From Callorhinchus milii (lineage: Eukaryota), in contig NW_024704742.1 of assembly GCF_018977255.1 (NCBI RefSeq), forward strand, positions 95,606,001 through 95,670,000: a stretch of DNA of 64,000 nt, read 5' to 3'. Within the stretch, counting starts at the first letter, position 1. Each line of letters opens with the position of its first letter. Shown in pieces: positions 5,030 to 56,489 of the stretch. The notes under the pieces are model-generated. The model made no database searches and was not told the DNA's origin. It saw only the letters and a program-made list of their open reading frames with translations. The position numbers were made by a program, and so were the translations under genes.

Positions 5030-5370
5030 ACAATTTCTCTACTGGTGCTGGCTGCTCTCTGGTGCCTTGCTCAAGTTGCCATTCTTCATGCGTGAACCTT
5101 GAGAATGAATACTGACAGGCTTTGTGACTATGGGGAGAGATCCTGCCCTTGCCTGCTGTGTGCTTTCAAACAGGACTCCATGGATAGTGATGACTCATGA
5201 GGAGCAGATACAAAGATTGATTTTTCTTCCATTTCCCAACCCCAGGGGCCAATTGCAGTTCCTGGCTAAAGTCCACTCACTCAGCACAGACCAGGGATTG
5301 AACCTGAGGCTTTCCCACTCTGTACATTTTAGGTTCACACCAGGCTGTAGCTATGTCACTTGAGTCACTG
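5030..5370 (-). mobile_element. Ancient tRNA-derived SINE, a separate family
   Basis: B-box-like GGTTCAATCCC on the - strand followed by TGGTCTGTGCTGAGT; related fragments near 18160-18268, 47090-47135 and 61860-61935. Confidence 0.5.
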
Positions 5371-5497
5371 TTTATACTCAGTGAAGCTCCCAATATAACA
5401 TAGTATTGGGAACCCATAAAATATTAACCTGTGCTGTAGCGAGGCGCAATAGTGGATTTGATTGCAAGCGCACGGCTGGCCGGCTTACTCCCTGTTA

Positions 5498-6986
5498 CAA
5501 CAACAACAACAACAACAAGATTCCATTTATAGAGCGCCTTTCACGTCGGGAGGACGTCCCAAGGCGCTGTACAGTTGGGTCAGGACCCGAGCAGGGGGGA
5601 AATGGTCAGGGTGAGGGGAGGGAAGGGAGGGAGCGAGGAGGGGGTAGAGAGTCGAGAGGGGAGCTGAAGGCACGGTCAAAGAGAAAGGTCTTGAGATCGG
5701 CCTTGAAGGAGGAAAGGTAGGAGGCAAGGCGAAGGCACTGGGGGATAGAGTTCCAGAGCCTAGGGGCTGAGAGGCTGAAGGCCCGGCCACCGATGGTAGG
5801 GCGGTTGGGGCGGGGGATGTGGAGCAGACCGGAGCCAGAGGAACGGAGAGTACGGGCAGGTAGGTAGGGGGATAGTAGGTCGGAGATGTAGGAGGGAGCA
5901 AGGCCGTGAATGGCCTTGTAGGTGAGGATGAGGATCTTGAAATCGATCCTCTGGGGGATGGGGAGCCAGTGGAGGCGAGCGAGGGTGGGAGTGATGTGTT
6001 CCCAAAGCCTGGTGCGGGACAGTACACGAGCTGCAGAGTTCTGAATGACCTGCAGCTTGTGGAAGGAGGTGCCGGGAAGGCCGGCGAGGAGAGAGTTCCC
6101 ATAGTCCAGCCTTGAGGTGATAAAGGCGTGGACCAGAGTTTCAGCAGCGTGAGGGGTGAGGTAGTGCCGTAGTCTGGTGATATTCCGGAGGTGATGGAAG
6201 GCGGTGCCAGTTGTGGTGCAGATATGAGGGAGAAACGACAGCTCAGGGTCGAACAGAACCCTGAGGTTCCTGACTGGCTTTGAGAGGTGGAGAGTGCAGC
6301 CTTGGATGCTGATGCTGTCAGCGCCTGAGGTGCGGTGGCGTTGACGCGAGCCAATCAGGAGGGCCTCAGTTTTGCGCACGTTGAGCTGAAGAAAGTTGTC
6401 TCTCGTCCAGGACTTGATGTCGGACAGGCAGGCTATCAGGACATCGGTGGTCGTGGAGTTGAGGGTAGAGGAGGAAAGGTAGAGTTGGGTGTCATCCGCA
6501 TACATGTGGAAGTTAACCCCATGTCTGCAGATGATGTCACCAAGGGGGAGCATATAGAGGGTGAAGAGGAGGGGACCGAGGACAGAGCCTTGAGGGACAC
6601 GGCACGAGACAGTGCGGGGGGTGGAGGAAAAACCATTCGTGGAAACAAAGTGAAGAGGGTGGGAGAAGTACGACCTAAACCACTCAAGGACAGGGCCTTG
6701 AAGGTTGAGGTGGGAGTACAAGTGGTGGAGGAGGATAGCATGGTCGACCGTATCGAATGCTGCCGATAGGTCGAGGAGGACGAGGAGGCAGAGGGAGCCC
6801 TGGTCACAGATGGTCAGGATGTCATTGGTGACCTTGACCAGGGCAGTTTCTGTACTATGGGCAGCACGGAAACCCGACTGAAGCGGTTCGAATAGTGAAT
6901 GGTTGGAGAGGAAAGAGTGCAGCTGGGAGGCGACAACTCGTTCCAGGACCTTGGACAGAAAAGGGAGGTTGGAGATGGGCCGGTAG
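5498..6986 (-). mobile_element. L2-clade LINE, young 5'-truncated copy
   Basis: RT-coding region, 3' UTR stem-loop and (TTG)n tail; 3' end nearly identical to 18268-18697, 29106-29350 and 43643-44110. Confidence 0.95.
5606..6985 (-). CDS. L2 ORF2 fragment: reverse transcriptase and C-terminal region, no native start
   Basis: Open for 459 codons from YRPISNLPFLSKVLE through QSGFR, LLDLSAAFDTVDH, VPQGSVLGP, YADD (6502-6491), SRLDYGNSLL and LHWLP. The first 29 codons of the listed ORF are flanking DNA. Confidence 0.9.
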   Translation of the reverse strand, partial: YRPISNLPFLSKVLERVVASQLHSFLSNHSLFEPLQSGFRAAHSTETALVKVTNDILTICDQGSLCLLVLLDLSAAFDTVDHAILLHHLYSHLNLQGPVLEWFRSYFSHPLHFVSTNGFSSTPRTVSCRVPQGSVLGPLLFTLYMLPLGDIICRHGVNFHMYADDTQLYLSSSTLNSTTTDVLIACLSDIKSWTRDNFLQLNVRKTEALLIGSRQRHRTSGADSISIQGCTLHLSKPVRNLRVLFDPELSFLPHICTTTGTAFHHLRNITRLRHYLTPHAAETLVHAFITSRLDYGNSLLAGLPGTSFHKLQVIQNSAARVLSRTRLWEHITPTLARLHWLPIPQRIDFKILILTYKAIHGLAPSYISDLLSPYLPARTLRSSGSGLLHIPRPNRPTIGGRAFSLSAPRLWNSIPQCLRLASYLSSFKADLKTFLFDRAFSSPLDSLPPPRSLPSLPSP

Positions 6987-7084
6987 CTTGATAGATGCAA
7001 GATGTTTCCTGGGTAAAAAATTAAAACATTAAAAAATGGCCAACTAGTGTGGTATTGGGTCATTGCCAACATTGCTTTCTGTTT

Positions 7085-7290
7085 GCAGGAAATGATGCTG
7101 GTGGCAACCTGATGTCATGGAAGTCTGCCTTTATTTCACAGCAAGAGGTTAAATGGCCAACTTCTGGGTTATTAGGACACCACTGACATCACTTCATGCT
7201 TAATGTGTTGTGCAGCAAAGGAGGAAGTGACCCATTTTAGCTTCTCACTGTAAATGACAATATAAAGTTTCCACCAGCATCACTTGCTGC
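7085..7290. mobile_element. Degenerate palindromic element (MITE-like)
   Basis: GCAGGAAATGATGCTGGTGGCAACCT matches the reverse complement of AAGTTTCCACCAGCATCACTTGCTGC at 22/26; a second, inner inverted pair is also present. Confidence 0.55.
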
Positions 7291-7559
7291 CAGTTGGACA
7301 AACTGCTCAACAGAAGTGCAATAAAATATTCAATTTTGTACTTCCTACTTTCCCTATTCTTGCTTTCCAATTGATACTTCCTTAAGCTCGTCTAGCCCAT
7401 AGATTCTTTCAGAACAATTATGAGTAAATGCGCAGTTTCTAAAAGAAATCCAGGGAACCTTTGACAAAAGTATCAAATAAAATCTAAGCAATCTGTTAAA
7501 TTAGGTAATCTGTCGAATACCTAAATTAATAATTAATTACTTGCCTTGGAGGTGTTGCA

Positions 7560-7712
7560 GCGTAAATTTACCAGGGATGAAGGGGATGAGTTACGAGGAT
7601 AGGCTGAGCAATTTGGGCCTATATTCTCTAGAATATAGAAGAATTAGAGGGGATCTTATAGAAACCTCGAAGGGCCGAACGGCCTACTCCTGCTCCTACA
7701 TGTTATGTTATA
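7560..7712 (+). mobile_element. CR1-clade LINE 3' fragment, internally deleted
   Basis: Translates to LPGMKGMSYEDRLSNLGLYSLEYRRIRGDLIET (CR1 ORF2 C-terminus), then GGGCCGAACGGCCT hairpin and TATGT-type tail. Confidence 0.8.
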
Positions 7713-7717
7713 ATTGG

Positions 7718-8886
7718 GCTTCCTCCTGCAATGACCTATCCTCCTCGGTCACTCTTCTCCACAGCTCCCTCTGCTCCACTCTCGATTCCCTTGCTCCCTC
7801 ACTTCCCGAACCGTCTCCTACTCATGAAAGTCACCATGGTACACCAGCCACCTCTGCTCCCTTAAAGCACAGATGCGTGCTGCGGAATGCACTTGGATTA
7901 AATCAAACTTAACGGTCCATCGGCAGATCTGGCTGGACCTTATCAAATCTTACCGCACTGTCCTCACCTCCGCTAAATCGTCATTCTACTCCAAGAAAAT
8001 CTTGGAGGCCAAGGACAACCCCAGCTTCCTCTTCTCCATCTCCAACTGGGTCCTCCTCCCGCCCTCTCACTCCTCGCCCATCCTCACCTCCAATACCAAC
8101 TGCGAGGTGATGCTGGACTTCTTTGAATCCAAAGTCGAGGCGACGCCTCTGCCCTTCTCTCTACTACCCCCTCCCAATCTTCCCCTCACACCCCAGGCCC
8201 TACCCATCACTCCCTCCACACCTTTGAACCTGTCTCCTACTCCTCTCTAACCACCACTATAACCCCCAAGAAACCGACCACCTGCTCCCTTGACCCCATC
8301 CCTACCCCTCTCCTTACCTCCCAGCTCCACCTCCTTGCCCTTCTACTCACAGACATCATAAACCTTTCCCTGTCCACTGATACCATTCCCATCCCTTTAA
8401 AAAGTCCATCATCACTCCTATCCTTAAAATATCCTCCTTGTACCCATCCCTGCTCGCAAACTATTGCCCCATCTCCAACCTCCCTTTCCTCTACGAGGTC
8501 CTGGAGTGAGTTGTTGCTTCCCAGCTTCACTCCTTCCTCTCCCACCACTCCGTTCATAAACCCCTCCAATCGGGTTTCTGTGCCGCCCACAGCATAGAAA
8601 CAGCTCTGGTCAAAGTGACAAATGACATTCTGTCTATCTGCGACCAGGGCTCCCTCTGCCTCCTCATCCTCCCACCTCTCTGCTGCCTTTGACACCATTG
8701 ACCACTCTATCTTCATCTACCGCCCATACCCCATCTCAAGACCCTCCGCTTCGACCGTGTTTTCGATCTACCTGGTTCCCCCCCCACCTCCATCCTCCCC
8801 AATCCCAACCCCCAGGTCGGATCCAAAACACTGACTGTCCTCCCGATGTGAAAAGTGCTATAGAAATGTAACTTTGTTGTTGTTGA
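7718..8886 (+). mobile_element. L2 LINE fragment (linker and RT N-terminus joined to 3' tail)
   Basis: Collinear with 26125-27125; frameshifted; jumps near 8720 to a 3' UTR with stem-loop and (TTG)n. Confidence 0.88.
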
Positions 8887-8894
8887 TTAGGGTA

Positions 8895-9112
8895 ATTCTC
8901 TGGAATCCCTGAAAGCCTCTCCGACTTGCTCTTTTCCTCCTATCTTTCAAGGCATGTATCAAAACTAACCTCTTAGACCCCGCTTTCAATCATCATTTCC
9001 CGTGTCAACTCTTCGGCTCGCTCCCCCAGCTCAGGTTCCCATCCAGCTTTATGAAGCGCTTTGAGACATTCTCCAACATGAAAGGTGCTATATAAATGTA
9101 AATTGTATTGTA
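8895..9112 (+). mobile_element. Old L2 3' fragment
   Basis: CTCTGGAATCCC...GAAGCGCTTTGAGACATT...GAAAGGTGCTATATAAATGT, matching L2 3' ends elsewhere in the window. Confidence 0.65.
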
Positions 9113-9234
9113 TTCCGATTTCTCATTTGTAAAATTCATGGGATTATTGCGGGCAGTATTCACTATCATGTCTGAAAATTATTTGAATTTGTACATCATA
9201 GTAAGTTAACATCTTGAGAGTGCTTGTTAAACAA

Positions 9235-9565
9235 TAATCCTTGTATTTGCATATTCTTTCATCACGCAGCCAATTTGGATACACAATATTTCACCTTGAA
9301 GTGAATGGCCAATTTATCTGGGGGTTTGTTGCCTGAGACACTGGGAGAAACTCCCTTCTCTTTTCTAATAGTGCCATGGGATCTATACCATTCACCTGAA
9401 CAAGCAAATGGGACTGCTTTTATTTTGCTTCACCCAATGTACAACGTTTACAACAGAGCAGCACTCTACCAGCCCTTAAATTGGAGTATCACCTTAGCTT
9501 GTGAGCCCCAAATCCTGACATGGGGCTCAAACCCTTCTGACTATGGGGTGAGAGTGTTACCAATT
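9235..9565 (-). mobile_element. Deu-domain SINE, old copy
   Basis: Reverse complement matches the head, Deu block and tail of 53300-53710. Confidence 0.65.
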
Positions 9566-12269
9566 GAAGGGGAATGTCTAGGAATTTTTAAGAAACAGCG
9601 AGCAACAGTCCATTTCAGAAACACTTGGTTTCAGACGCAACCACTGGAAAACATTTGTGCTTTATTTTTATTTGTGAAACTATAATAATGAAAAGCAGAT
9701 GTATTATAATTTTATAACATTATGTTGGCCATCTTGTTATTGTGCCTCTTATATAAACATGATCAAATGTCTTGGAAGATTCTTCAGCAATGACGACAAT
9801 GCCCCTGCAGTAATAAAACAAGTCTGTTATTTCTGCAGTGGGGACTTGATGCCCCACACTTTCTTTTGTGGTGGGGGTGGGGTGGGGGGGTGGGGGGGGT
9901 AAGGTAGGCCTGATTCAGACCGAGCTTTCATCTCCACTAAAAATAAAACAAAATTCAATACATTTAGGAAAAGGTCATGTCTACATGCTAAAGACAAAAC
10001 AAATGCCTGGTTGCCTTCAACTTTAGAGGGCAGTGCTGTCCAACAATTCTGCGTCTCTACACTATAAGAACTTGCAACAGTGTTGTTGAGCTCTGAATCC
10101 ACCCCTACACCCTTCATGTGCAAAGGCACCGGATCAGTAAATCAACATCAGGAGATTTTCTTTTGTTCTTAAGAAAAAACAAAAAATATTTCTCAAGTTA
10201 CAATCTAAATGGGATTGCCGTGAAAAATAAATCAGGACTTTGAATACAGGCATTGACTTTAATGTGAGCTTGGGACAATGACACAATTCATAAGATTTTA
10301 CATTATGTACCAGGTGCCATTACAGACGTAATAACGTTGAGTATTTTATAGTGGACAACAGAAGAAACAATAAGGGGCCAGGGGTTATTCTGCTCCGTGC
10401 TCTCGTGTTGCACATTCACAGTTGTGGTCTAAGCATATTCTCCAATAAATTTTGCCAATTTGTTCCCGTACACTTATAACTCTAATGCAATTTTTAAAGC
10501 ATTTCATTTTATGACTAAGGCTTCAAATTCGTCCTTGTTTCTCTTGCTGAGTTGCTCCCCAGTGCTTCAAATGTGCCATTGAAGATAAGGTGACTCGAAC
10601 TACTGTGCATACAATATTCCAAATGTGATGTCTATTGAAAGCAGGAATAACCTCTTCCAGCTTAAAGACATTTTGAACAAGATGTCAGATGAAAAGACTA
10701 ACAAATGAATGTATGAATCATGAATTCAGAGCTTTATATGATCCAGGTCTTTTAACTCTAAAAACACAGAACTGAAGGATATATGTTTGAAATTAACAGA
10801 AATTACAGCAATTTATATATGGATAGACTCCTAACACAACTAATAGATATTGTATCAATAAGTGCCATTTTCAAATATCCTCTTAAGAGCAGCAGTGAAA
10901 TAGAAATAGATACAGAATAATACGACCAAATATTCCACATGAGGCCACAGGAAACTTTCATACTGACGGCAGCAAAACAAATTAAATCCAAACTCTTGAT
11001 AATAAAATGTACAAATGTATCAGTTTACCAAACTTAAAGTGTACAACTCAAACCCTTTTATTTCACATACAAGCAGTGAGCTTCCAACCTTCCTGTAAAG
11101 GTTATGAAGAAGAGCATTAGCAGTATCCATGAACATATGCACTTCATAAAGTTATCTGGGATTTAATAAAGAAGCAGCACCCGCTGCCTTCAGGCATCAT
11201 GCTCTTCAGAATTATCTTCAGTACATTTAAATGGAAGGCAGTCATATCACTGTCAGGTTTGTAGGCAGATAAAATAATGTCAGGGTCCCCATCTTCATTT
11301 GGGAACTTTGAAATTTACCTGTTGTTAATCTATGTCTTATCATCATGACTCCAGTCAACTTGACTGCTATTAATAGGTAATGTGATCACAACAAACGGAG
11401 CCTACCTCATGTTTTTGAAACATAATTTAATGTAGGACTTTCTATTATTTTACGTACAGCATTAGTCCTAAACAAAAATGGGATGGGATGGGCAGGGCAG
11501 GACGGGGGAGAATATGTGATATGTGATATGTAATAAATATCCCGTAACATGCATTTTCCACCCTGTAAGTTTTGAAAATGACACCGTCAACTTAATCTGA
11601 AACTTCAGCTGAGATATTTTTATTTTATTTAAAGAATTACACTAACTGTATTGGGTGCAGAAGTTCAGTATAGGAGGTAATTTAAGCAATAAATGGTTAG
11701 TAACATTTGACAGGTATTTAGAACCTGTAGGAGATGCAGCTGATATATCAGCTAGCTCTGGGGAACTGTTAATCATTCACAGTTTTCTCAGATTTAATTT
11801 GTGATGAAAAATGAAGCATAGGCAGACATCAAAACGCTTCTCAAGATGACGGATTTCTCCTTATTTTTCATGCACCAGTAGCGCTCTCTAATGCACCATG
11901 TTTAGCATAAGGTTTCCTGTGTAAAATACCCACTCCAGCACACTTCATTAAAAGACATTTTGCATAGGCCTCAAAAACAGCCTAATGACTGACAAAAACA
12001 TTTTGTTTTGCCAGCTTTATCCTCATTTAGGAATTCTTCTTGTTGAAAATGTGAATGAATAATATTCCGCTTTATAATGCAGATTGTCAATGTCACTATA
12101 ATTAACTACATGGAGAATATCTAACCAATGTACCAATAAAGGTGTTTTTTCCAGTCTGACATTAGAATTTCTATGTTATGTGTTAAGTCTACATGATATC
12201 ATTACTAAGTACTGTGTAATTCTGCAGATTAAAAGGTCTCACATGCACTGTTTATATGTTACAAACTAG

Positions 12270-12515
12270 GGTGTCAGCCAGGCTCAGTTGGGAGCACACC
12301 CACCTCTGAGTAAGAAAGTTTGGGTTCAAGTCTCATGGCGGGACTCTGAACTCACAGTCTAGGCTGACACTCCAATGCAGTGCTTGGATGTGCTATATTG
12401 TTGGAGGTGCCATTTTTTGTATGAGGCAATAAAGTGAGTTCCCGCTTACTTGTTCAGGTGCATATTAAAGATTCCATGGCAGTAATTTAAAAAAGGTAGT
12501 TTTTGGCACCTTGGC
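12270..12515 (+). mobile_element. Deu-domain SINE, old copy
   Basis: GGCTCAGTTGG A box, GGGTTCAAGTC B box, TTGGAGGTGCC...ATTAAAGATTCCATGGCA Deu block. Confidence 0.75.
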
Positions 12516-13448
12516 AGGCTACACTAACCAAAGCACTTTTACACTTGTTTATGTGTCAGCCCAGAATTGGCAGAATTCAGACTTATTGGCTTCCAACAAG
12601 GGCTTTAGAAGCTGAATTGGCTTTCTAGTGTTTCTTTTGCCAAACGTTTAATCCATTAAATGTGAGGTAGGCAAAAAAGGTTGGATGAGAAGCAAATTAT
12701 AGTATTTCATAATTTTGTACCCTCTTTTCTAAATATTTGCTGCCAACAGCAAACTGCACAGACCAGCTTCTGGAGTTAAGAGCTTTAACTCTTCTGGCAC
12801 ACTTTCAGTGTTTGTCATTGTTTTACATCGTAACCTTTTCAGGTTTGGAGTGGAAAGCATTGTTCATTTTATTAGAGAGGTCTCATACAACAGTAGTTTT
12901 TGAGTACTGTTTTCTAAACATTTGCTTTCTGAGCCTTTTTATTGCCATGCAGACTAATCAGAAAGAGCTTTTCAGTTGCTGCCACTGTGTTCCAAAATAT
13001 GGAGACAATGTAAAAGCAGTAGAAACTCGAAATGACCTCCAGTTTGATACTGCATTTACATTGCAGCTCTGAATCTTTAGAGCTCCAATGTAAAGTGGCA
13101 TAAATGAACAAACTGTACCGTAAACCTGCCAGTTTAAAGTCATCTAAGTGTCTAATTACAGTAACTTTTCTTTTGTAGTCATTAATCAACCTTTACACAA
13201 TGTTCTGTCAGCCGTGACCTGACAGCATTTTACTGTTGCTATAGAGACACAAACTTAATAGGGATATTGTTCCTATTCTCTGGGTGGTCTATGTCTTGTT
13301 GAAATCTGATGACAGAAACCCCAGATTTAAAACTTTCAACTTCCATTTGGCACGCCAGACACAAAGACAGTTTAATCATAAACATCCTACTTTACATTTC
13401 CATTTTTAATGGAAGTACTGTAAAACAACAACTACTGGCACTTATATA

Positions 13449-13800
13449 GTGCAGTCCTGTAGCGTAGTGGTTGGAGCACTCTTAAGAGGAAGTGAGAAGA
13501 CTTGAGTTTGATTTCTGGGCAGGGCCAACGTTAGGCAAGTTTCCTTACTCCACTCACCTATGTTTACCTCACAGTAAGTAGAAACCCAATAGTTAGTCGA
13601 TTGGTGGATCACTTTTCCCAGGGTAATAATTCCTTAAAAAAAGACATAATGGCTGTTTGTGGGACACTGTTGTGCACAATTGGCTTCCATGTTTCGCCCA
13701 CAAAATATACAATCAATTCACTTTACAGTATATTCTGTGAGGCACTTCCAGACGTCTCAAAGAGGTGATAAGGCACTATATCAAATGCAAAGATTATCAT
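13449..13800 (+). mobile_element. Older long subfamily of the tRNA-derived SINE, full length
   Basis: Same head as the young SINE plus an extra ~60-bp segment (13560-13623) and the shared tail. Confidence 0.8.
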
Positions 13801-14307
13801 ATAGTGCATTTCACATAGGAAAATAGGTAAAAATGATCCCAGTGACAAAATTGGAGCCCAATCAGGGTAGAAGTTAGGAGGATAGGAGGCTCAGTCAAAG
13901 AGTTAGGCTTGTAGAAAGGATTTGAAATTGGAGCGGGAAGGTGCAAAGTGCAGATCTTTAGGGAGAGTTTTGGAGAGTAGGAGCAAAGTCGGCAAAGGCT
14001 CACTTAATAATGATGGGGCTGAAGGGTAGGATCTCAAGCCTGAATTATCAATGTGGAGGGAGTGGCATGTAGTAAGAACTCAGGACAGGTAGGGTACAGG
14101 CATGTAACAGAGGGTCAGAACTTAAAGTCCTGCGAGGGAAGATGGAGCTAGTAAATCCTGGCAAAGATGTGGTTGGTGGACTTATGGAACTTGGTACAGA
14201 AAATGATATGGATTGCAGAGTTCTGGGTGAACTGGAGCTTGGGGAAGATGGAACTGGGAAGGCCAGAAAGGAGGGCATTGGAGAAATCAAGTCTGGAAAT
14301 GATGAAA
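13801..14307 (-). mobile_element. Old L2 3' fragment
   Basis: - strand encodes FIISRLDFSNALLSGLPSSIFPKLQFTQNSA, followed by a decayed 3' end. Confidence 0.75.
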
Positions 14308-14309
14308 GT

Positions 14310-14778
14310 CCGTATCTCACACCCACAGCAGCCGAAACCCTCGTTCACGCCTTTGTCACTTCCACTTTTCAAATGCTCTCCTTGCTGGTCTCTCCAGTAC
14401 CACCATACACAAAATTCAATAAATTCAGAACTCTGATGCCTGGATACTAAACCGCACAAAACTCCAGACCTCCATCACAACAGTCCTTGCCAGGCTGCCT
14501 CCCAATTACCGAACAGATCGACTTCAAAATCCTTCCTCCATCGTTCCCTATGCACCACCATCGGCGGCCGTGCTTTCAGCCACTACGCCCCAAAGCTGAA
14601 CTGCTTCCCTCAATCCCTCCACCTTACCCCACCCTCCCCACTTTCAAATCCTGCCTAAAGACCTTCGTTTTTGATCGTGCTTATGGTCATCTTCCTCCTC
14701 CTTCTTCCCCTGGCTCGGGGTCAGACTCCATCACCGTCAAGCGCGTGAAGGGCGCTATATAAATGCAAGTTGTTGTTG
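14310..14778 (+). mobile_element. L2 3' fragment
   Basis: YLTPTAAETLVHAFVTS, IDFKIL, FKSCLKTFVFDRAY, then GGCGCTATATAAATGCAAG(TTG)n tail. Confidence 0.85.
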
Positions 14779-15859
14779 AACGTGTGAATGATGATTTGGG
14801 ATGTGTTGGGGTGAGATAGGGATGGAGGGGGAGGGGCAATGTAGCAGAGTACTAATTTGCACATTGTTTGAAGAATGTACAGTACACTATTTTTATAACC
14901 TTGCCTGGTTATAGTAAGAAGATCTGCACTCTACTCTCACTCTCCTCTGATTAATGGGAGGTCCTCTCATGCCATCTATAAGATGCAGTAATAGAAAGCT
15001 TTCTAGTCTCCAGAGCTGTAAGTGAATCTCCTAGGCTCCAAAGTAAGCTTTACTGCAACATGAAGGTAGCCAGGAGATATAAATATTCTGAGGTGAATGG
15101 TTTTATATTAAAGTGCTAATTTTATTTCAGGAATGAGATTTTGAATTAATTTAAGCTTCTCAGTTACATTTGACTTTGATTTAAGAACAATGATGGCAGA
15201 TATGCCAAGGCAGCAAAATATGAGGATAAGAAGTTTTGGGCTTTGAAAGCTAGTTGTAAGATTGACACTAGGAGTTTTCTTACACAGAGGGTAAAAGCAG
15301 CAGGAACAGGCTGCCTGGAAGGATGATAAAAAAATACATTGAACTCGTTGAAGAAACAGCTTGCTGCTATAATGGGAAGATGGTGGGGTGAGTATTCTAG
15401 AAGATAAGACAAAACGGTACAAAGGCGCTCTCCATACAAACTTGTCTTGTGATTTTGCGACTTAAACTGTGTGTGTACTATGATGATAATATTGTGTTGC
15501 ATTTGGCCGAGGTTCTCAGTGGCTCGTCCATGTTGGGTGGGGAGAGGGGAGGATTGGGAATCACTCTCTGCTGAATTAATTTGAGTGGGGTTGGCTGAGC
15601 CCGAGAGGTGGCCAATCTAGGAATGGGTGGCATGGGAACATACCTTCACTGCACAAGGTGTGGAGTAGGTGGCAGATGATGCGAGGGCTGTCGGCTAATC
15701 GGATCTCCAGCATAGTGCCTTTCAATACAACAACAACAAAATTACATTTGTATAATGCCTTTCACGTCAGGAGGATGTCCCAAGGCGCTGGATAGTCAGG
15801 GATCCACAAAAGGCAGGAGCATTGCTCTCCAATGAGATATTCTGTGGATGTCCTCTTAG

Positions 15860-16075
15860 GCATGGTTACCTCAGTGGCAAGCTATGTGGTTTTAGCTGGT
15901 TAGACTTCAGCAGTATCCCAATGCACACTCTGGATTGGATATTGTGCATTTCATTTCAACAATCTATCTCTTGAATTTCCATGTGTAGGTGGGATGCATG
16001 GATCTCTCAGTTTGGTTTTGGATACTCTTAAGCATAATGATGGGTTTCCGCATGTGTCAATCACCCGGCTGATCA
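15860..16075 (+). repeat. Unclassified interspersed repeat (family X), 3' part
   Basis: Ends in GATACTCTTAAGCATAATGATGGGTTTCCGCATGTGTCAATCACCCGGCTGA, homologous to four other copies. Confidence 0.8.
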
Positions 16076-18267
16076 AAAGAAAAGATTGGAATTGGGCCTA
16101 ATGAATTTGATTTATGTATTTTTTCACTGATGGCTGTCATGTATTGATTCTTTTGTTACACCCTGATGCCCTCTACGATATCATAAAGATCAAAGATTTT
16201 AAAAGGAAGACTTCAACCCTGTGTGTTTTCAAACAGAAGAGATGGTAAGTGAGCATACTTTCTATCTCAGGAGAATGAATCTGAAATGAGAATATTTGTC
16301 TTCTATTTTTTGCAGGGTTTTTTTTGCTCTTAGAACATCCATCATTTTTATAGACTGGTTAGAAGTTATTATTTTTTTCCTTTTTACACTATTCCTGCCA
16401 AGATATGGTATTCAGAGAGTAAGCATTAAGTTAAATATCATTTGTGACCCTTTGGATGATAAGAAATCAAGAAAAGACGATCCACTTAGCTTTACCCATC
16501 CAAATCACTCTTTTATCAAAGGCATTGAATCTAAGAAAGGCTAAAAGAAGATTGTCAGACTGAATCAGAGCACTATTAATGGTTCATAGTGTCCATACTA
16601 TACATCTGTTTGATTAAAATGTGCTGCTCTCTTTGTACCTTACATACAGTGTGTTTATCCGGTAAACTGTTGCAGGAATTGTAGACAATAAATGCATTGC
16701 TATCTTTCACTCAAGATATTTGGCTATTTCCCAACTATTACTTGATTCCGCCCAATACCTCGGCATGAAGACAAGAGCATTTGTATTAAGTGTCAGATTT
16801 ATCTTTCAAATAAATATAAAGCAAGATCTGAGCAATGTAACCATCAGTTAAACCAGTGGTGGCCAACCTGTGGTCTGCAGAGCTCACAGGAATCCATATG
16901 AGGTTGGGTAGAAAGTGCCATGCTGCTCAGTTACTGTTCCCTTTGCGCTCCGCTTGCTATTTATTGCTTAACTAACACTTCAAGACACTTAACATTTGAG
17001 TGGAAAGCTTGGATTTACCCCAGTGGTAATCTTTACAGTTCAAACAATTCATTTGAAGCACTTTGAGACATCTCAATGACATTGTAAGACACTATATCAA
17101 ATGCAAGGATTATTATTATTCATTTCTGTGAACAAACATGTATCTTGTCTTCCCTTAATTTTTTTAAAATATACTAAATATATTTAGCAAAGTGTATTTT
17201 ACTCTATTAGGTCTTCAGCACATGGGCTTTATACAACTAATGCTTTGGGGTCTGTTGTCTACCTTATTGTGAACAGCAACAAACAAGCATAATGTGCAGT
17301 ATCTGGAGTGTTTGCTGGTTCTCAGTCTTGCCCAGTGAACAGGTAAGTCATTGTTAGTTTTTATTTTCATTGGCCACAGTTGGATGATTCAGACAATCAT
17401 GTTGTAGGGATTGTTTTTGCTACGCTTCAGTAACTGGAAAGCATTTATCCCAGGAACAGTGTGACCTCCTGCTTCAATGATTATCTAACCCACATGCTTC
17501 AGTGGGTACAGACACAGATGAGAAATCACTCTGCCTGTCTTATTTTGTATGAGTGTGTTTTTAAGAAAAATCAATAATATTCAGTGGACCAAAAAAGATA
17601 CAGTGCTATAAAAGCCCCTGATGTTTTTCCCCAAAGCAAAGCAAAACAAAGCAACGCCTTCTGACAAAAGCACAACATCCTCTCCATTATTTGCGTCTGA
17701 GTAGTATTATTTATATTTTGCAATCTTTTCCTCATTGCAATATCAAATGATCGCAATATATTGGATACAATTATAGGTAATTGGTATTGCATGTAAATCC
17801 TTTATCCAGAATGCTATGTTATCCCTGGGAGTTTGGAAAAATAATTTAAAAAAAACTAATTCTGACTGTCTGCCCCCTTTCCCATTTTTACAAAAATTAC
17901 TGGCAGGTAAAGTGACTGCAAATGTTATGGCATTGGAATTCAGTGAATGCATATTTTGTTTTGTGTTTATATAGATGTGCAATATTAAACTCTGGTGTCT
18001 TTTCCAAATAGCCATGCCTGATAATTCATTACCTTACTTGACTATGGATGAGTCACAGCAAAACCAAAAATGTTTTTCACCTGAATTACACGCATACATA
18101 CATATGGTATGTACATTCAACCAAGATTTCTGCATATATCGACCAGCTTAAGCAAGAATCCAGGCTAATATTTCCTGTCTCTTGTCCAAAGGTTCTGGAA
18201 CCAATTGATGTGCCTCTTCCACCATCCCGGGCTGAAATTCACTAAGTCAACACAGACTGGGAATTGA

Positions 18268-21810: not shown

Positions 21811-22125
21811 TAATAATAATAATAATAATCCTTGCATTTGATATAGTGCTTTTTCACGTCTTCTAGACGTCTCAAAGCACTTCACAGAATATGCTGTCAA
21901 GTGAATTGATTGTATATTTGTGGGTGAAATGCTGCAGCCAAATTACGCACAGCAGTGTCCTGCAAACAGTCGTGGATTGAAGTGACCAATTTATTATTGT
22001 TTTTTTTTCTTGAGGGATTTTTATTAGGGGTGTAGAGTAAGGAAACTTGCCCAAGGTTTCCCCCTGGCTGGAAATGAACCCAGGTCTCTCGCTTGAGAGG
22101 CGAGTGCTCTAACCATTGAGCTACA
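21811..22125 (-). mobile_element. tRNA-derived SINE, short subfamily, TAGAA-loop tail
   Basis: A/B boxes, shared body, stem-loop ACGTC-TAGAA-GACGT and (TTA)n tail. Confidence 0.9.
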
Positions 22126-24789: not shown

Positions 24790-27700
24790 TACCAGAGCCA
24801 ACCAGAGCCCGGCTGCTGTGTGACGTCACCTCCGCCCACCACCTTTGAATCTCTCAGCCTGGACTGACATTGTCCGCTCTCCCATGATGACTCTCACCAA
24901 TGGGCTAACCATGCCTCGCTGACCCCACCACACCCGCCGCTTGGTTTTAGTCTCGGTGAGCGCATTTTGGCTGCTGCCACTGACCCGAGCTGCCTCCCCA
25001 TAATGCCCCACCCCTATCCTCTACCCTCACTTATTCCCGCTCGGTCCTCCTCTCCCACAACCCTCCCCGACTCCTATCACTGCTCAACCGTCCCACTGCC
25101 TCTCTCTGCTCCAGCCTGCGAATCCTCCATCGGACCCACCATGGGAGTCGCCGCTGGCCGTCTAACAGCAGCTACTCTGACTGCCCTATCCCCTACTCCC
25201 AGTGCAAGGCTCACTAGTCCCCAACCACAGGGGCCAACCTCTCCTCCCTGATCCACATTTCTACCCCTCCCTTCCCCACCTTGCCCCCCACTTTCCGCCA
25301 CCAACTGTCCCTCCGCATCGGTCTACAAAACATACGTTTTCAGTGCTTTGGGACATCCTCCCGACGTGAAAGGCGCTCTATAAATGTAATTTTGTTGTTG
25401 TTATTGTTCCCACTCCAGCAAAACATTCACCATCCAACACTTCATCATCGATGAACACATTGACATCCTCGCCCTCACTGAAACCTGGATCACTCCAGAC
25501 GACACCTTTCCCCTGATAGAGGCCACACCACCCGGCTGCACCTTCCATCACACCCCACGACCTAACCGCCATGGTGATGGTGTGGCTCTCATCTCCCGGT
25601 TCCTGCTCAGCCTATCCTCTTACTCCTCTGGAACTTTCCCCTGCTTTGAGCACCTTACCCTTTATCTCCCCTCCAACCTTTGCCTCAAAATTATTATTTA
25701 CGCTTCCTCCAATCCCTCCCCCACCTTCATCCCTGACATTTCCACTCTCCTATCTTCCCTCTCCCTTTGCTCTGAATGCCTCCTCATCCTTGGCGATTTC
25801 AATCTTCACTTCACCCCCTACTGTTCTACCTCTGCTGACTTTTCCTCTCTTATCTCCTTCCTCAATCTCTCTCTCCACATCCACTCCACCACCCACGTCC
25901 GTGGCCATCCCCTTGACCTGGTGATCACTCGGGGCTTCACCATCTCGGACCTCACCATCATGGACAAAGTGAGCTCGGACCATCACTTCATCTCCCTTAA
26001 CTCCTCAATCCCTCTCCCCACTGCCACCCAAACCACCTCCATCTCATTCCACCACTGGAAACAAATCTCCACCCCCTCCCTCTCGGCTGCCTTGGAGTCA
26101 TCTGAAATCTTTCTCCTCTGCACACCTTCTTGCAATGACCTATCCTCCTCGGTCACCCTTCTCCACAGCTTTGTCTCCTCCACTCTCGATTCTCTCACTC
26201 CCCTCTCTTCCAGAGCCATCTCTTATTCACGCAATTCACCTTGGTACACCAGCCACCTCTGCTCCCTTAAAGCACAGATGCGTGCTGCGGAATGCACTTG
26301 GATTAAATCAAACCTAACTGTCCATCGGCAGATTTGGCTGGACCATGTCAAATCCTGCCACTCTGCCCTCGCCGCTGCTAAATCGTCGTTCTACTCCAAG
26401 ATAATCTTAGAGGCTAAGGACAACCCCAGGCTCCTCTTCTCCATCATAACCAGCTCCTACACCCACCCTCTCACACCTCACCCATCCTCACCTCAAACGC
26501 CAACTGCGAGGCGATGGTGGACTTCCTTGAATCCAAAATTGAGGGAATCTGCTCAGCTGCCTCTGCCACTGCATCTGCTGCCCCCTCCCCATCTCCTCCT
26601 TCCACCCCGGCCCCTACCCATTCCTCCCTCCATATCTTTGAACCTGTCTCCCCCTCCTCTCTCATCACCACCATAACCTGTATGAAATCTACCATCTGCT
26701 CCCTCGACCCCATCCCTATGCCCCTCCTTACCTCTCAGCACCACCTCCTTGCCCCTTTACTCACTGTCATCGTTAACCATTCCCTGTCCTCTGGTACTGT
26801 TCTCACCCTATTAAAAAACATTGTCATCACGCCTATCAAAAAAAAACTCACTGGACCCTTCTCTACTCCGTAACTACCAAGCCATCTCCAATCTCCCCTT
26901 CCTCCCCAAGGTTCTGGAACCAGTTGTTGCTTCTCAGCTTCGCTCCTTCCACTCCCTTCTTGAACCCCTCCAATCGGGTTTCCGTGCCGCCCACAGCTCA
27001 GAAACCATCCTGGTCAAAGTGACAAATGACATTCTGTTCATCTGCGACCAGGGCTCCCTCTGCCTCCTCGTCTTCCTTGACCTCTCTGCTGCTTTTGACA
27101 CCGTTGACCACTCTATCCTCATCCACCACCTCTCCTCTCAATTCAACCTCCACGGCGCTGTCCTTGATTGGTTCAGATTGTACCTCTCACACCGCCTGCA
27201 CTTCACCTTCTCAAACGGTTTCTCCTCTAGACCCCAGACTGTCGGGTGTGGCGTTCCTCAGGACTCTGCCCTTGGTCCCCTCCTCTTCGACCTCTATATG
27301 CTCCCTCTTGGTGGCATCATCCACAGACATGGGGTTAACTTCCGCGGATGACACCCAACTCTACCTCTCTGTCTCCACCCTTGACTCCAGGACCACTGTT
27401 GTGCTGACAGACTTCAAGTCCTGGATGAAAGCTAACTTTCTTCAGTTGAACGTCCTGATTGGCTCCCGTCAGCGCCTCCTCACCTCTGGCGCTGACAGCA
27501 TCACCATCCATGGTTGCACACTCCACCTTACTAAGCCAGTCTGTAACGTTGGGATCTTGTTTGACCCTCAACTATCCTTTCTGCGCACATCTGCGCCATC
27601 ACCTGCTCTGCTTTCCCCCACCTCCACAACCTCAACTGGCTCCGACACTGTCTCACAGCACAGGCCGCCGAAACCCTCATACATGCTTTCATTACATCGA

Positions 27701-28210
27701 GGCTTGGCTATTCCAACTCATTGCTTGTCGGCCTCTCTAACTCCTCCCTCCACAGGCTGCAGATCTTCCAGAACTGTGCAACCTTTGTCCTCTCCGCACT
27801 AGGCTCCATGACCCTATCATCCCCATCCTTGCTCAACTCCACTGGCTTTCCATCACACAGAGGATACAGTTAAAGATCCTGGTCCTCACCTTCAAAGCCC
27901 TCCACGGTCTTGCTCCCCCCTACCTTTGCGACCTCCTAACCCCCTACCATCCTTTCACTCCCTCCACTCAGTGGGCTCCGGCCTGCTTCACGTCCCCCGC
28001 CTCGCTTGCCCCACTATTGGCAAGCGGGCCTTCCGCCACTCATCCCCCACCCTCTGGACCTCCATGCCGCAGTCCCTCTCCCTCGCCCACCCTCCCCCAC
28101 CCTGATCCCCAGCTCGGGTCTGTAACTCTGTCTGTCCAGCCCCTTGGGACATCCTCCTGACGTGAAAGGCATTATACAAATGTAATTTTGTTGTTGCTGT
28201 TGTTGTTGTT
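24790..28210 (+). mobile_element. Near-full-length L2 LINE, decayed (APE endonuclease plus RT)
   Basis: APE motifs IGLQNIRS, ILALTETW, LILGDFNLH, THVRGHPLDLV, SDH; RT motifs LDLSAAFDTVDH, GVPQ, ADDTQLY; several frameshifts; stem-loop and (TTG)n tail. The 5' boundary is approximate. Confidence 0.9.
25339..25408 (+). mobile_element. 70-bp L2 3' tail inserted into the L2 endonuclease domain
   Basis: Removing it restores ...QNIRSHSSKTFTIQHFIIDEHIDILALTETW; the insert is the stem-loop plus (TTG)n. Confidence 0.85.
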
Positions 28211-42356: not shown

Positions 42357-43058
42357 ATATAAGATTACTGGCTAACTGGCCATCATTATATAAGTAGTTT
42401 TTCATCCAGTGACAATAACAAAAACAACAATTTAGTTATATAACCCTTTTCACATTGGGAGGATGACTCAAAGCATTTCACACAACATTATTATTAACAC
42501 TGTATAGTGAAGATAAAAGTCAACTTTTTTAATCAAAAACATTTATTTTTCTTTACTGCATTGGGTGTTTATGATTTTAGTTTTTAATCAAAATATTGAT
42601 ACACCTGCTAGCTAAACAAAAAATCCTTTCATTTACTTTAATTACCAATCCTTCCAATCAATGCACTCTCCCCTTTAGTTGGGAAGGTGGCTGGGGATTT
42701 GTCACTGACAGAAATGAGAATGACCGAGCTTTTAATTTCATCTCACCAGAAAATGCAGGGTTAAATTCTTCACCCAGAAACCAAACATTCACCTATAAAA
42801 TACATTATAATCATTCGACTTACACTGGAGTACCGTAAATCCTGTAAAGTGCTTTGAGACACTATCCTGCGTGAAGAGCACTACATAAATGTAAGTTCTT
42901 CTTGCTGTTGAGATAGCCTCCTAACGTGAAAGGTGCAGTATTAAATGCAAGCATTATTTTTATTTATTTTAATCAGCTAAGAGCTGTTTAAAATCAACCG
43001 AACCCCTGAGTCAGAACCGAAACCAAAGTTGCTTGGAACACTCAGCAGGTCAGGCAGT

Positions 43059-43364
43059 ATAATAATAATAAGCCTTGCATTTGATATATTTACACATTTA
43101 CACATTTTCTAGATGTCTCAAAGCACTTCACAGAATATTCTGTAAACTGAATTGGCTGCATACTTGTGGGCGAAACGCGCACAGCAGTGTCCCACAAACA
43201 GTCGTGGATTGAAGTGACCAATTTCTTATTGTTTCTTTCTTGAGGGATTATTATCAGGCGTGCGGAGTAAGGAAATCTGCCCAAGTTTTCACCCTGCCGG
43301 AAATCAAACCCAGATCTCTTGCTTGTGAGGCAAGTGCTCTAACCACTGAGCTACAGGACTCCAC
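43059..43364 (-). mobile_element. tRNA-derived SINE, short subfamily
   Basis: Head GTGGAGTCCTGTAGCTCAGTGG, shared body and (TTA)n tail. Confidence 0.9.
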
Positions 43365-43385
43365 ATCTATGGAGAAAGGAAAGTG

Positions 43386-43422
43386 AGTCAACATTTCAGG
43401 TCCATGACCCTTCATCAGAAAT
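43386..43422 (-). ncRNA. Minimal type I hammerhead ribozyme motif, copy 1 (decayed)
   Basis: ATTT-CTGATGA-A-GGGTC-ATG-GACCT-GAAA-TG-TT-GACT: both core boxes and helix II are present. Confidence 0.65.
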
Positions 43423-43642
43423 GGGGCATGTTGGGAGGGAGAGGCTTTTAAGGGCTAAAGAGAGGGGGGAGGCAGGGCAAGGAAGATAAAGGAGAAATGG
43501 GATAGAGGACAGGGGATGATGGGTTAAAGAGGTGCTAATGATGCGAAACAAAGGGGGAGATTGCAACAAAACAGGTAGACTAGAAAGAGAAAAGGTATGT
43601 CTGGGACCCAGATGATGTGGTAAATGATGAACTCTGTCAACT

Positions 43643-44110
43643 ACAACAACAACAATAAGATTGCGTTTATAGAGCGCCTTTCACATCGGGAGGACGTCCC
43701 AAGGCGCTGGACAGTTGGGTCAGGACCCGAGCAGGGGGAAAATGGTCAGAGTGAGGGGAGGGAAGGGAGGGAGCGAGGAGGAGAGGGAAGGGAGGGAGCG
43801 AGGAGGGGGTAGCGAGTTGAGAGTGGAGCTGAAGGAACGGTTGAAGAAAAGGTCTTGAGACCAGCCTTGAAGGAGGAAAGGGAGGAGGCAAGGCGAAGGC
43901 ACTGGGGGATGGAGGTCCAGAGCCTAGGGGCTGAGAGGCTGAAGGCCCGGCCACCGATGGTAGGGCGGTTGGGGCGGGGGATGTGGAGCAGACTGGAGCC
44001 AGAGGAACGGAGTGTATGGGCAGGTAGGTAGGGGGATAGTAGGGTCGGAGAGGTAGGAGGGAGCAAGGCCGTGAATGGCCTTGTAGGCGAGGATGAGGAT
44101 CTTGAATTCG
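43643..44110 (-). mobile_element. Young L2 3' fragment
   Basis: Near-identical to 5498-5945, with a ~25-bp internal duplication near 43758-43805. Confidence 0.92.
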
Positions 44111-44949
44111 AGTGTTAGACTGATGGAGTGCTGTTATTGCCTTCTTTGTCTTTCAGTCCCTGACACCCATTGCAAGACATTACTAGTCTTGTAATATTCC
44201 TTAAATGCGGAGACCATTGATTGAGGAGTAATAAATGGTAAAAGGTGTAAAAGATGTGGAGTGCAGTTGAGCGGGAAATGGCCAGAGTTTCATGAGCATC
44301 ACTGGGGGCAAATCTCAGTGATGGCTTAACAGAGGTGACTCTGCTCCACTCCCAGGCTCCATCCCGGTTTCTTATTTATTCCATAATGTGGCTATCCCAG
44401 CAGAATAGAGGAGAACTCCAGGTTATTTATTTTGGGGGATTATTTACTAATAATAAATACATTTAATAAATAATTTATTGCCTAAACACCCAACAAACTG
44501 GTGCCCTGGATTCATCTGTCACCATTTTTAAAATTTGTTCATTTGTTCTGTGACATTCATATTTGGATGTCATTTTTTAAAAAAATTGAAAGCTTTTCCA
44601 GAATGTGTTTTTCAGAAGATTACCACTTGGGGTCCTCAGAGTCATGTGACTTTGCTATCCTCCCTTACAAGGCTTCTGAAGCTTTTGCAGCTGTAATAAC
44701 TAAACATTGTGAGATGGGAATCTGATCTGAATCTCGTGTTCCACGCAGTTAATGAGTGTCCAGTCAACATTGGTATAATGCATTTCAGATATTGTGATCT
44801 ACTTCATAATATTTCTTGGAAGATTTCTTAATAAGAAATTATTGAACTTGAACATCAAATGTGCTGAAGAATTTCTAAGATAATACTGAATATGTTCTTC
44901 TGCACATTCCAAGTTTGGGAAATGTTATAGTTACACCTTTCTTCTACAG

Positions 44950-45150
44950 CAGTGGTGGCCAACCGTTTTGGTCGGCCAACACAATATATTTTCTTGATTG
45001 AATATTTCTTGCTTTGTGCCATAAATCAAGAAATATTCAATCAAGAAAAACCTGAAAACATGCCACAGATCGAACACATCTTACCCTAGACTAGTGCGAA
45101 TGTTCAGGGTGGGTCCTTCATGATGGCCCCACAGGCCGGGAGTGGGCCTG
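44950..45150. mobile_element. hAT-like non-autonomous fragment containing a perfect inverted repeat
   Basis: Starts CAGTGGTGGCCAACC, a hAT-type terminus also seen at 16854; the second terminus was not found. Confidence 0.4.
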
Positions 45151-45343
45151 TTACTAGCAAAGTGATTAATTGATATTTAAGCATGATATTCCAATGATAT
45201 TATTCTGATAAAATTGAAGAAGTAGTATTTCTTGCAGCATTAATATTTCTCACAAAATTGTGAGATCACCAGTAAGCTTTGGATAATGAAAGCCCTTTGG
45301 CCCAGTTTTTAATTATCCTCTGGGTAAAGAAATATTTCCTGGT

Positions 45344-45480
45344 CAAAACACAAAATACTGCAGATGCTGGAATCTGAAACGAAAACATAGAGAACTGGGA
45401 AAACTCAGCAGGTCAGGCAGCATCTATGGAGAAAGGAAAGTGAGTCAACGTTTTGGGTCCATGACCCTTCGTCAGAACTG
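45344..45480 (-). mobile_element. 137-bp hammerhead-bearing retroposon (Penelope-derived or retrozyme-like) with 12-bp TSD
   Basis: Flanked by an exact direct repeat ATATTTCCTGGT at 45332-45343 and 45481-45492. Confidence 0.8.
45443..45479 (-). ncRNA. Minimal type I hammerhead ribozyme motif, copy 2 (GAAA changed to AAAA)
   Basis: AGTT-CTGACGA-A-GGGTC-ATG-GACCC-AAAA-CG-TT-GACT: 4-bp helix I, perfect 5-bp helix II and palindromic AACGTT in place of helix III. Confidence 0.65.
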
Positions 45481-45894
45481 ATATTTCCTGGTGTCTGTCT
45501 TGAAATTATCCTTTGCAACTCTAAACCTGTGACCCTCTTGCCTTGGTGTTTTAACATGTCTAAAAAAATTGTTCTTTTTTTCCAATCCCATTTGAACTCT
45601 TGTATACCTCCGTAGGGTTCCCTCTGAGAAGCCTTCTTTCAAGAGTTGCCGATACTTGTTTCAAAATACATCTTTATCTTAGAAATCATATTGTCAGTTT
45701 GTGTTTAATGAAATTTGCTCACTGTTTTGCTTTAATGTTGGAAAAAATTAAAATTTTCAATGGGAAAGTATAAATATACAGTTTGATTAAAATTAAATCA
45801 TGCCACACACTGGAATAAACGTTACAATATTTCAATTCCATGTGCTTTTCTTCTTGGAATTTTATTAATATAATTATAATCCTTGCAGTAAGTA

Positions 45895-47841: not shown

Positions 47842-48174
47842 GTGGTGTCTTGTAGCTCAGTGGTTAGAGAACTCGCCTTGCAAGCGAGACACTGAGTTCA
47901 ATTCCAGGCAGGACGAAACCTTGGGCAAGTTTCCTTACTCCACACACTTAATAATAATCCCTCCACAAAACAAAACAATAATAAAATTGGTCATTTTCAA
48001 TCCACGACTGTTTGTGGGATACTGCCGTGCGCAATTGGCTGCAGCGTTTCGCCCACAACTATACAGTCAATTCACTTTACAGGATATTCTGTGAAGCGCT
48101 TTGAGACGTCTAGAAGATGTGAAAAGCACTATATCAAAATGCAAGGTTTATTATTATTATTATTATTATTATTA
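47842..48174 (+). mobile_element. tRNA-derived SINE, short subfamily, TAGAA-loop tail
   Basis: A/B boxes, shared body and long (TTA)n tail. Confidence 0.92.
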
Positions 48175-49221: not shown

Positions 49222-49538
49222 TAATAATAATAATAATCCTTGCATTTGATATTGCGCTTTTCACGTCTTCTAGACGTCTCAAAGTGCTTTACAGAATATA
49301 TTGTAAAGTGAATTAACCATATATTTGTGGGCGAAACGCGGCAGCCAATTGCGCACAGCAGTGTCCCACAAACAGTCGTGGATTTAAAATGACCAATTTA
49401 TTATTGTTTTGTTTAGGAAGGATTACTATTAGGCATGTGGAGTAAGGAAACTTGCCCAAGGTTTTGCCCTGCCTGGAATTGAACCCAGGTGTCTCGCTTG
49501 CAAGGCGATTGCTTTAACCACTGAGCTACAGGACTCCA
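49222..49538 (-). mobile_element. tRNA-derived SINE, short subfamily, TAGAA-loop tail
   Basis: Full head, body and tail on the - strand. Confidence 0.92.
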
Positions 49539-49671
49539 TTACTGGTTGGCCTCTGATCTACTAGCTCCGACCTCCTCCTTGTCCCTCGAATCCTTCACTC
49601 CACCATTGGTGGCCGCGCCTTTGGTCACTACGCTTTGTCTTGCCCTCTCTTTCCCCAAATTCAGGTTGCGC

Positions 49672-49992
49672 GTGGAGTCCTGTAGCTCAGTGGTTAGAGC
49701 ACTCGCTTTGCAAGTGAGAGACCTGAGTTCAATTCCAGGCAGAGGGCGAAACCTTGGGCAAGTTTCCTTACTCCACACGCCTAATAATAATCCCTCCAAA
49801 ACCAAAAACAATAATAAATTGGTCATTTTCAATCTACGACTGTTTGTGGGACATTGCTGTGCGCAATTGGCTGCCGCGTTCGCCCACAAATATACAATCA
49901 ATTCACTTTACAGAGTGTTCTGTGAAGCGCTTTGGGATGTCCTCCCGACATGAAAAGCGCTATATCAAATGCAAGGATTATTATTATTATTA
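49672..49992 (+). mobile_element. Young tRNA-derived SINE, CTCCC-loop tail
   Basis: Near-identical to 2032-2356 and 56172-56489. Confidence 0.93.
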
Positions 49993-56171: not shown

Positions 56172-56489
56172 TAATAATAATAATAATCCTTGCATTTGAT
56201 ATAGCGCTTTTCACGTCGGGAGGACGTCCCAAAGCGCTTCACAGAACACACTGTAAAGTGAATTGACTGTATATTTGTGGGCGAACGCGGCAGCCAATTG
56301 CGCACAGCAATGTCCCACAAACAGTCGTGGATTGAAAATGACCAATTTATTATTGTTTTTGGTTTTGGAGGGATTATTATTAGGCGTGTGGAGTAAGGAA
56401 ACTTGCCCAAGGTTTCGCCCTGCCTGGAATTGAACTCAGGTCTCTCGCTTGCAAAGCGAGTGCTCTTACCACTGAGCTACAGGACTCCA
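56172..56489 (-). mobile_element. Young tRNA-derived SINE, CTCCC-loop tail
   Basis: Near-identical to 2032-2356; CAGTT repeated at both ends (56168-56172, 56488-56492). Confidence 0.93.

Follow-up and report, generated by a model that had tools for sequence, protein, structure and literature searches.

Among described systems, the closest to the sequences reported here are the minimal hammerhead ribozymes of Penelope-like elements (PLEs), and what we say of each published system refers to the portions of the cited papers that are drawn on here. PLE minimal hammerheads have a helix II of 4–8 bp closed by a G10.1-C11.1 pair, and their dimers cut weakly (PMC4209133). PLEs make target-site duplications of 8–10 bp (PMC3846280), an inverted 5′-truncated partner is typical of them (PMC8557442), and fold-back copies are a hallmark of the group (PMC8557442, PMC3846280). 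In the one reconstituted PLE the main substrate is uncut RNA, reverse transcription starts 85–92 nt past the cut, cleavage by the hammerhead requires the protein of the element, and insertion did not need cutting (PMC11167929). PLEs have been reported in the Callorhinchus milii lineage (PMC4350176). The chordate rows of the PMC4209133 alignment that are drawn on here include no cartilaginous fish, and our literature search found nothing on such motifs in sharks or Callorhinchus; the chondrichthyan set of a recent preprint (bioRxiv 10.64898/2026.07.22.740005), Repbase or Dfam may cover the family described below.

Inspection of a 64,000-nucleotide window of the Callorhinchus milii genome (the whole stretch of contig NW_024704742.1 that was analysed) reveals two 37-nt motifs on the minus strand, at 43386–43422 (copy 1) and 45443–45479 (copy 2), exactly where an earlier note, made from the letters alone, had placed a pair of hammerheads. 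We think it very probable that the two motifs lie in separate, decayed retro-insertions of a single high-copy repeat, likely the 5′-truncated tail (the pseudo-LTR end) of a PLE, whose minimal hammerhead would cut only as a pair through a palindromic helix III, and that the ribozyme is dead or crippled in both copies.

The layout of copy 2, assigned from the sequence, a pair table and the portion of the PMC4209133 supplementary consensus used here, is as follows. Helix I is formed by 45479–45476 with 45446–45443, and after it come the core box (45475–45469), a single extra A (45468), helix II (45467–45463 with 45459–45455), the GAAA box (45454–45451), in which G12 is changed to A, and the palindromic CG (45450–45449), with the predicted cut falling between 45447 and 45446; all of these are on the minus strand. 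The CUGANGA box with one extra base before helix II is present in both copies, as is a 5-bp helix II, the closing pair 10.1-11.1 of which is G-C in copy 2 and G-U in copy 1. The short open helix I, the type I topology, has four of four pairs in copy 2 and three of four in copy 1. The palindromic 15.2-16.2 pair followed by NUH reads CG and then UU in copy 2, as it does in the majority of the family, and UG in copy 1; the GAAA box is found in copy 1 and in the family majority (66–87%), and not in copy 2. Copy 1 therefore has both its core and GAAA boxes intact, and its lesions are a U-C mismatch in helix I, the G-U rather than G-C pair at 10.1-11.1, and the change of the helix III CG to UG (a wobble). 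By every sequence feature tested the motif is a PLE minimal hammerhead. The palindrome AACGUU, put forward earlier as helix III, is present as a six-letter sequence, but only its inner four letters (15.1, 15.2, 16.2 and 16.1) would form helix III if the motif is active; the A and the U on the outside are, respectively, core A14 and the base at the cut site, so that the helix in the active fold has four pairs and not six.

The two 37-mers differ at five of 37 positions (45478/43421, 45471/43414, 45455/43398, 45454/43397 and 45450/43393), and four of the five differences are CpG transitions, with CpG accounting for six of the 37 places in the two-copy mosaic (hypergeometric P ~0.001). Both counts agree with what the earlier note had claimed, as does the complementarity of the copies: copy 1 keeps GAAA, and copy 2 keeps the helix I and helix II pairs and the CG of helix III. 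Its further claim, that the two together reconstruct an intact ancestor, stands in part. The mosaic matches the family majority at the five positions where the copies differ. In loop 2, however, the base that the copies share is a minority one (45462, where a letter other than that of both window copies has 63–71% of the depth in all four runs described below), and the two-copy ancestor is therefore not quite the family majority. The 37-nt unit is similarly a real motif but not a free-standing one, since the likeness extends beyond it: the copies are identical at 55 of 60 positions over 45480–45421 and 43423–43364, and 78% alike over a further 54 nt (E 4e-6), for which the copy 1 part resumes at 43060–43008 behind a SINE. 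Both copies are damaged at positions of known importance, and from their letters they are predicted to be dead or crippled, as had been suspected. The change of G12 to A is a standard inactivating change of the hammerhead.

How common the element is can be judged from contigs of four public runs (X1, X9, X10 and X8; four of 24 listed, representing three organisms), aligned to 45250–45610 at 80% likeness. Run X1 is, judged by shared words, from the same organism as the window, and X8 consists of contigs for which an RNA origin is only guessed. The aligned contigs number 9455 in X1, 18746 in X9, 18530 in X10 and 2096 in X8. No pile of molecule ends was reported for these runs, nor would contigs reveal one. 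In X1 the summed depth is 262,004 at the core and rises to 778,772 immediately downstream, compared with 10–30 on unique flanks; summed depth is no copy number, and the abundance of the family is of the order of 10^4.

Only five places within the 37-mer have another letter at 10% or more of the depth, and all five are CpG-linked. G12 is the majority letter in each run (79, 66, 71 and 87% of depth in X1, X9, X10 and X8), which bears out the guess that GAAA is ancestral; C11.1 (83–88%) and the helix III CG are likewise in the majority in all four runs (83–91% together), and the family majority has a complete hammerhead core. Decay is equal at both letters of the helix III CpG (14–16% each in X1, X9 and X10), even though one change keeps a wobble and the other breaks the pair, and there is thus no sign of selection after insertion; decay of the inserted copies is probably neutral. 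As judged from contig depth, compensatory changes stay below 10% at every helix position in the four runs, and the structure is therefore without covariation support in the family. Outside the motif, site 45425 (A to G on the minus strand) is variant in 41% of the depth in organisms B and C (X9 and X10) and in 2–4% in organism A, and since these frequencies differ between organisms, the subfamily make-up differs between species.

Opposite-strand joints connecting 45432–45439 to 45476–45481 occur in X1, X9 and X10 (five among the 15 listed of 111). These match fold-back copies, like the inverted 5′-truncated partner of PLEs, and are absent from both window copies. The best-supported of these joints, 45439 to 45479, falls on a 3-letter microhomology (45439–45441 and 45477–45479) that stems from the complementary helix I arms, and this microhomology may guide a template switch.

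Copy 2 occupies a 137-bp insertion (45344–45480, minus strand) that forms a 3′ end piece consisting of the hammerhead and a 100-nt tail region. It is flanked by a 12-bp direct repeat, with the upstream copy (45481–45492) matching the downstream copy (45332–45343) exactly. Empty-site contigs join 45331–45344 to 45481–45503, the 12 letters at the joint fitting both sides. The exact 12-bp repeat, together with contigs of the host repeat that cleanly skip 45344–45480, shows that copy 2 is a retro-insertion with a target-site duplication, and the duplication, the empty sites and the 9455 contigs of the same-organism run X1 together uphold the proposal of a retroposon family bearing the ribozyme motif. 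The host is an older repeat on the same strand (45302–45535, with halves at 45481–45535 and 45302–45343), recognized by depth and translation, which has a depth of about 5,000–17,000 in run X1 against 10–100 on unique flanks. It reads like what we take to be the end of a CR1-type LINE reverse transcriptase, and an Atlas search gave it no confirmed name, every match being below 0.9. Copy 2 crosses the predicted cut, starting 34 nt before it and ending 103 nt past it inside one duplication, and its template RNA was therefore uncut there. The part downstream of the hammerhead (45344–45442) contains the most shared stretch of the family by depth profile (45406–45431) and a predicted long hairpin (about 45428–45349; the fold is not significant relative to shuffles), and by analogy with the role described in PMC11167929 it likely holds the reverse-transcription start site.

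The same element is present as copy 1, which has extra upstream sequence and is interrupted by a SINE of tRNA origin. This upstream part (43423–43600) is pyrimidine-rich (78% C+T) and is kept only by copy 1 of the two; at least 43423–43455 belongs to the element, as it matches the loose-end consensus behind 45480 in all four runs. Downstream of the hammerhead is a first part identical to 45442–45421 of copy 2 (43364–43385), followed by the SINE (43061–43363; about 300 bp, with a TTA-repeat tail and a tRNA match at 43289–43360) and by the remaining downstream part (43008–43060), which is 78% alike over 54 nt to copy 2; all are on the minus strand. The flanks of copy 1 contain no readable duplication, and the element is worn at its 3′ end. 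The copies are 2057 bp from each other and differ in their 5′ ends, as separate insertions; the end of an L2-type LINE and unique sequence occupy the interval. The possibility that the two are the pLTRs of one element was rejected, the 2 kb between them being LINE and unique sequence with no PLE frame.

The window also contains other repeats. The SINE within copy 1 has six more long copies (matches of 314–326 columns, 78–82%), and the family, which is tRNA-Ala-derived and about 300–320 bp long, is found at 2039–2357, 21816–22125, 43061–43363, 47842–48160, 49224–49538, 49672–49990 and 56174–56489, with two copies head to head at 49224–49990. At its 3′ end the family looks like the tail of the window's L2-type LINE (families D5 and D6). 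Long remnants of L2-type LINEs, with domains for reverse transcriptase and apurinic endonuclease, are at 5609–7114 (minus strand) and 25390–27800 (plus strand). An AT-rich and almost perfect inverted repeat at 44984–45051 (about 68 bp), with weak, below-threshold matches to microRNA models, is perhaps a miniature DNA-transposon remnant.

Several observations point to PLE parentage. The motif agrees at each letter with the consensus of PLE minimal hammerheads, the additional base ahead of helix II and the palindromic 15.2-16.2 pair among them (PMC4209133), and retro-insertion with a short duplication and 5′ truncation is seen in the duplication and empty sites of copy 2 and in the different 5′ extents of the two copies. 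As no PLE protein was found, we infer the link from the motif, the duplication, the 5′ truncation and the fold-back joints, and conclude that the family is likely a PLE tail. Within 33–56 kb, none of 146 stop-free frames of at least 55 residues matched Pfam, and neither a PLE frame nor a host gene was found (the set is 146 of the 396 such frames of the window, plus two long frames that matched LINE domains). A frame upstream of copy 1 has no match among 403 candidates, nor among 1.84 billion protein representatives, a rough exon scan gave no recognizable gene, and six pattern scans of viral, metagenome and prokaryote collections all gave no loci. The lack of a reverse transcriptase and GIY-YIG frame beside the stubs is expected, since both copies are truncated. 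In an antisense frame of copy 2, 23 of 30 residues match a UniRef model of Callorhinchus milii golgin A1 (residues 377–406; one of two candidates), a match that places the family in cartilaginous fish; the gene model probably took the repeat for an exon, an artefact, although an exonised repeat is the other explanation.

By analogy with published PLEs, insertion would have begun with a GIY-YIG endonuclease nicking AT-rich DNA, after which the reverse transcriptase would have initiated synthesis some 100 nt past the hammerhead and terminated prematurely, so that a stub remained. In a tandem transcript of the parent element, two hammerheads would come together as a double hammerhead with a 4-bp intermolecular helix III and two active sites, which would cut after GUU at a low rate, probably with the element's protein. 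The inserted copies would decay neutrally by methyl-CpG deamination, with no host function. In nearest-neighbour calculations, which ignore core contacts, the double hammerhead of the mosaic (−14.5 kcal/mol) is disfavoured relative to two monomers (−21.6) and to the best dimer (−27.9); a copy 1 dimer scores +7.4, and in the predicted monomer fold part of the core box pairs with the cut-site triplet. Within the limits of such a model, these energies agree with a motif that would need help to cut.

A feature of the contigs that admits other readings is a pile-up of loose ends with random AT-rich flanks (agreement 0.34–0.40) at 45477–45479 in all four runs, as seen in the best 24 of 1032 rows. 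It comprises 116 contigs at 45478 in X1, 184 in X9, 271 and 208 in X10, and 15 and 32 in X8, and it lies on the 5′ border of helix I and away from the predicted cut site, for which there is no entry among the 24 rows; copy 2 itself starts at 45480. We see a small chance that this edge is the natural 5′ end of uncut RNA, such that the 137-nt stubs would be either complete run-off copies, made by a PLE reverse transcriptase that primes inside the pseudo-LTR on the promoter side, or an independent mini-element with a hammerhead. Were this true, it would explain the tens of thousands of single minimal hammerheads in fish genomes, and the genome-wide proportions of 5′ ends at the hammerhead edge and at the cut site would measure the rarity of germ-line cutting. 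That the 137-nt unit is itself a mini-element without autonomy (or a run-off copy of an RNA whose natural 5′ end is at this edge) borrowing the enzymes of a PLE, and not a product of random truncation, is in our view improbable: the loose ends at 45477–45479 in four of four runs and the start of copy 2 at 45480 are what it would produce, but copy 1 and 141–295 contigs per DNA-like run continue upstream, and a similar pile would come from hairpin drop-off, from the 3-letter microhomology of the helix I arms or from alignment-end effects, the pile-up itself being judged from the best 24 of 1032 rows.

A quite different origin, as monomers of a tandem non-LTR retrozyme spreading through small circular RNAs, is very improbable. 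Retrozymes do derive from PLE ends and are present in the one chondrichthyan sampled (bioRxiv 10.64898/2026.07.22.740005), but the two copies have different 5′ ends and are separated by 2057 bp that contain unrelated repeats, no whole-unit head-to-tail joint is among the 15 listed of 111, only 8–15 contigs per DNA-like run fit two places, and the retrozymes described in PMC7229834 carry canonical hammerheads. We attach almost no weight to the idea that the pair is a working heterodimer that cuts a long host transcript. The copies share a strand at that spacing, the core of copy 1 could in principle act on the GUU of copy 2, and the helix III of such a heterodimer would have the pairs A-U, U-G, G-C and U-A. 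However, the copy 2 GUU site would have G-U at 10.1-11.1 as well as the helix I mismatch, the other site has G12 changed to A, the heterodimer folds at −4.0 kcal/mol against −14.8 for two monomers, no host gene was found in 33–56 kb, and decay is at the family's neutral CpG sites; the copies are not a functional pair. Finally, the resemblance to a hammerhead could be a coincidence within an unrelated repeat. There is no hammerhead among 11 Rfam matches at E up to 5 (4227 models; the Rfam models expect a full helix III), the folding energies are not significant (z 0.20 and −1.26), and a relaxed structural descriptor, which finds only these two places in the window, finds none or one in each of ten random windows (one in three of the ten). 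Yet a 29-letter pattern that matches twice in the window has no match in any of 100 shuffles, the family majority has all the consensus features, including those outside the descriptor, and the place of the motif, close to the 3′ end of a retro-insert that is truncated and prone to fold back, is the one it has in PLEs, all of which makes coincidence exceedingly improbable. Separate, decayed insertions of a PLE tail remain the reading that we prefer.

The upstream edge of the motif also has the appearance of a possible 3′ splice site, the long pyrimidine tract (43423–43600 in copy 1) ending in CAG (45480–45478 in copy 2), of which the AG is the start of helix I; the Drosophila Penelope intron ends at helix I (PMC4209133). 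Loose ends at 45480–45478 show no common exon. A second candidate, a splice acceptor at 45444–45424 (a branch-like stretch and an AG), was rejected as an essential feature, the A of this AG being G in 41% of the depth in X9 and X10.

As it stands the pair means little, since the 2014 description already presented decayed and dispersed minimal hammerheads at PLE ends as a large part of animal genomes. The family as a whole would be good material for asking what the hammerhead does for PLEs, a question raised in PMC8557442 and PMC11167929, as its copies with bounding duplications are very numerous and occur in three or more related organisms. The positions at which insertions begin with respect to the cut site record whether the germ-line template was cut, and copy 2 is one such record, of an uncut template.

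Comparison with described systems, on the portions of those reports used here, places the family as follows. It shares with the PLE minimal hammerheads (Cervera and de la Pena 2014, PMC4209133) the core boxes, the extra base between positions 9 and 10.1, the G10.1-C11.1 pair, the palindromic 15.2-16.2, a helix I of 3–5 bp and an occurrence as thousands of dispersed single copies, and the same build is found in rows from Xenopus tropicalis (2), Ixodes (1) and Crassostrea; its 3-nt loop 2 and 5-bp helix II are at the short end for them, and no linked reading frame was found here. Like PAc, the Poseidon element of Anolis carolinensis (Frangieh et al. 2024, PMC11167929), it has the hammerhead about 100 nt from the 3′ end of the insertion, AT-rich targets and insertion from uncut RNA, but whereas the start site of PAc is an AC-rich stem-loop inside the reading frame, the end here is GU-rich and has no known frame. 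The short duplication, the strong 5′ truncation and the inverted 5′ partner in other copies are shared with endonuclease-bearing PLE insertions (Arkhipova et al. 2013, PMC3846280; Craig et al. 2021, PMC8557442); the pile-up of 5′ ends at the hammerhead 5′ edge, in contrast, is seen here and was not found in the portions of those two papers drawn on. Animal non-LTR retrozymes (PMC7229834; bioRxiv 10.64898/2026.07.22.740005) are similar in having a type I hammerhead that needs a dimer, in being non-coding and in deriving from PLE ends, but they form head-to-tail arrays, whereas the copies here are dispersed single stubs with a minimal motif. The kind is thus the one described in 2014, to which these two copies add one more family.
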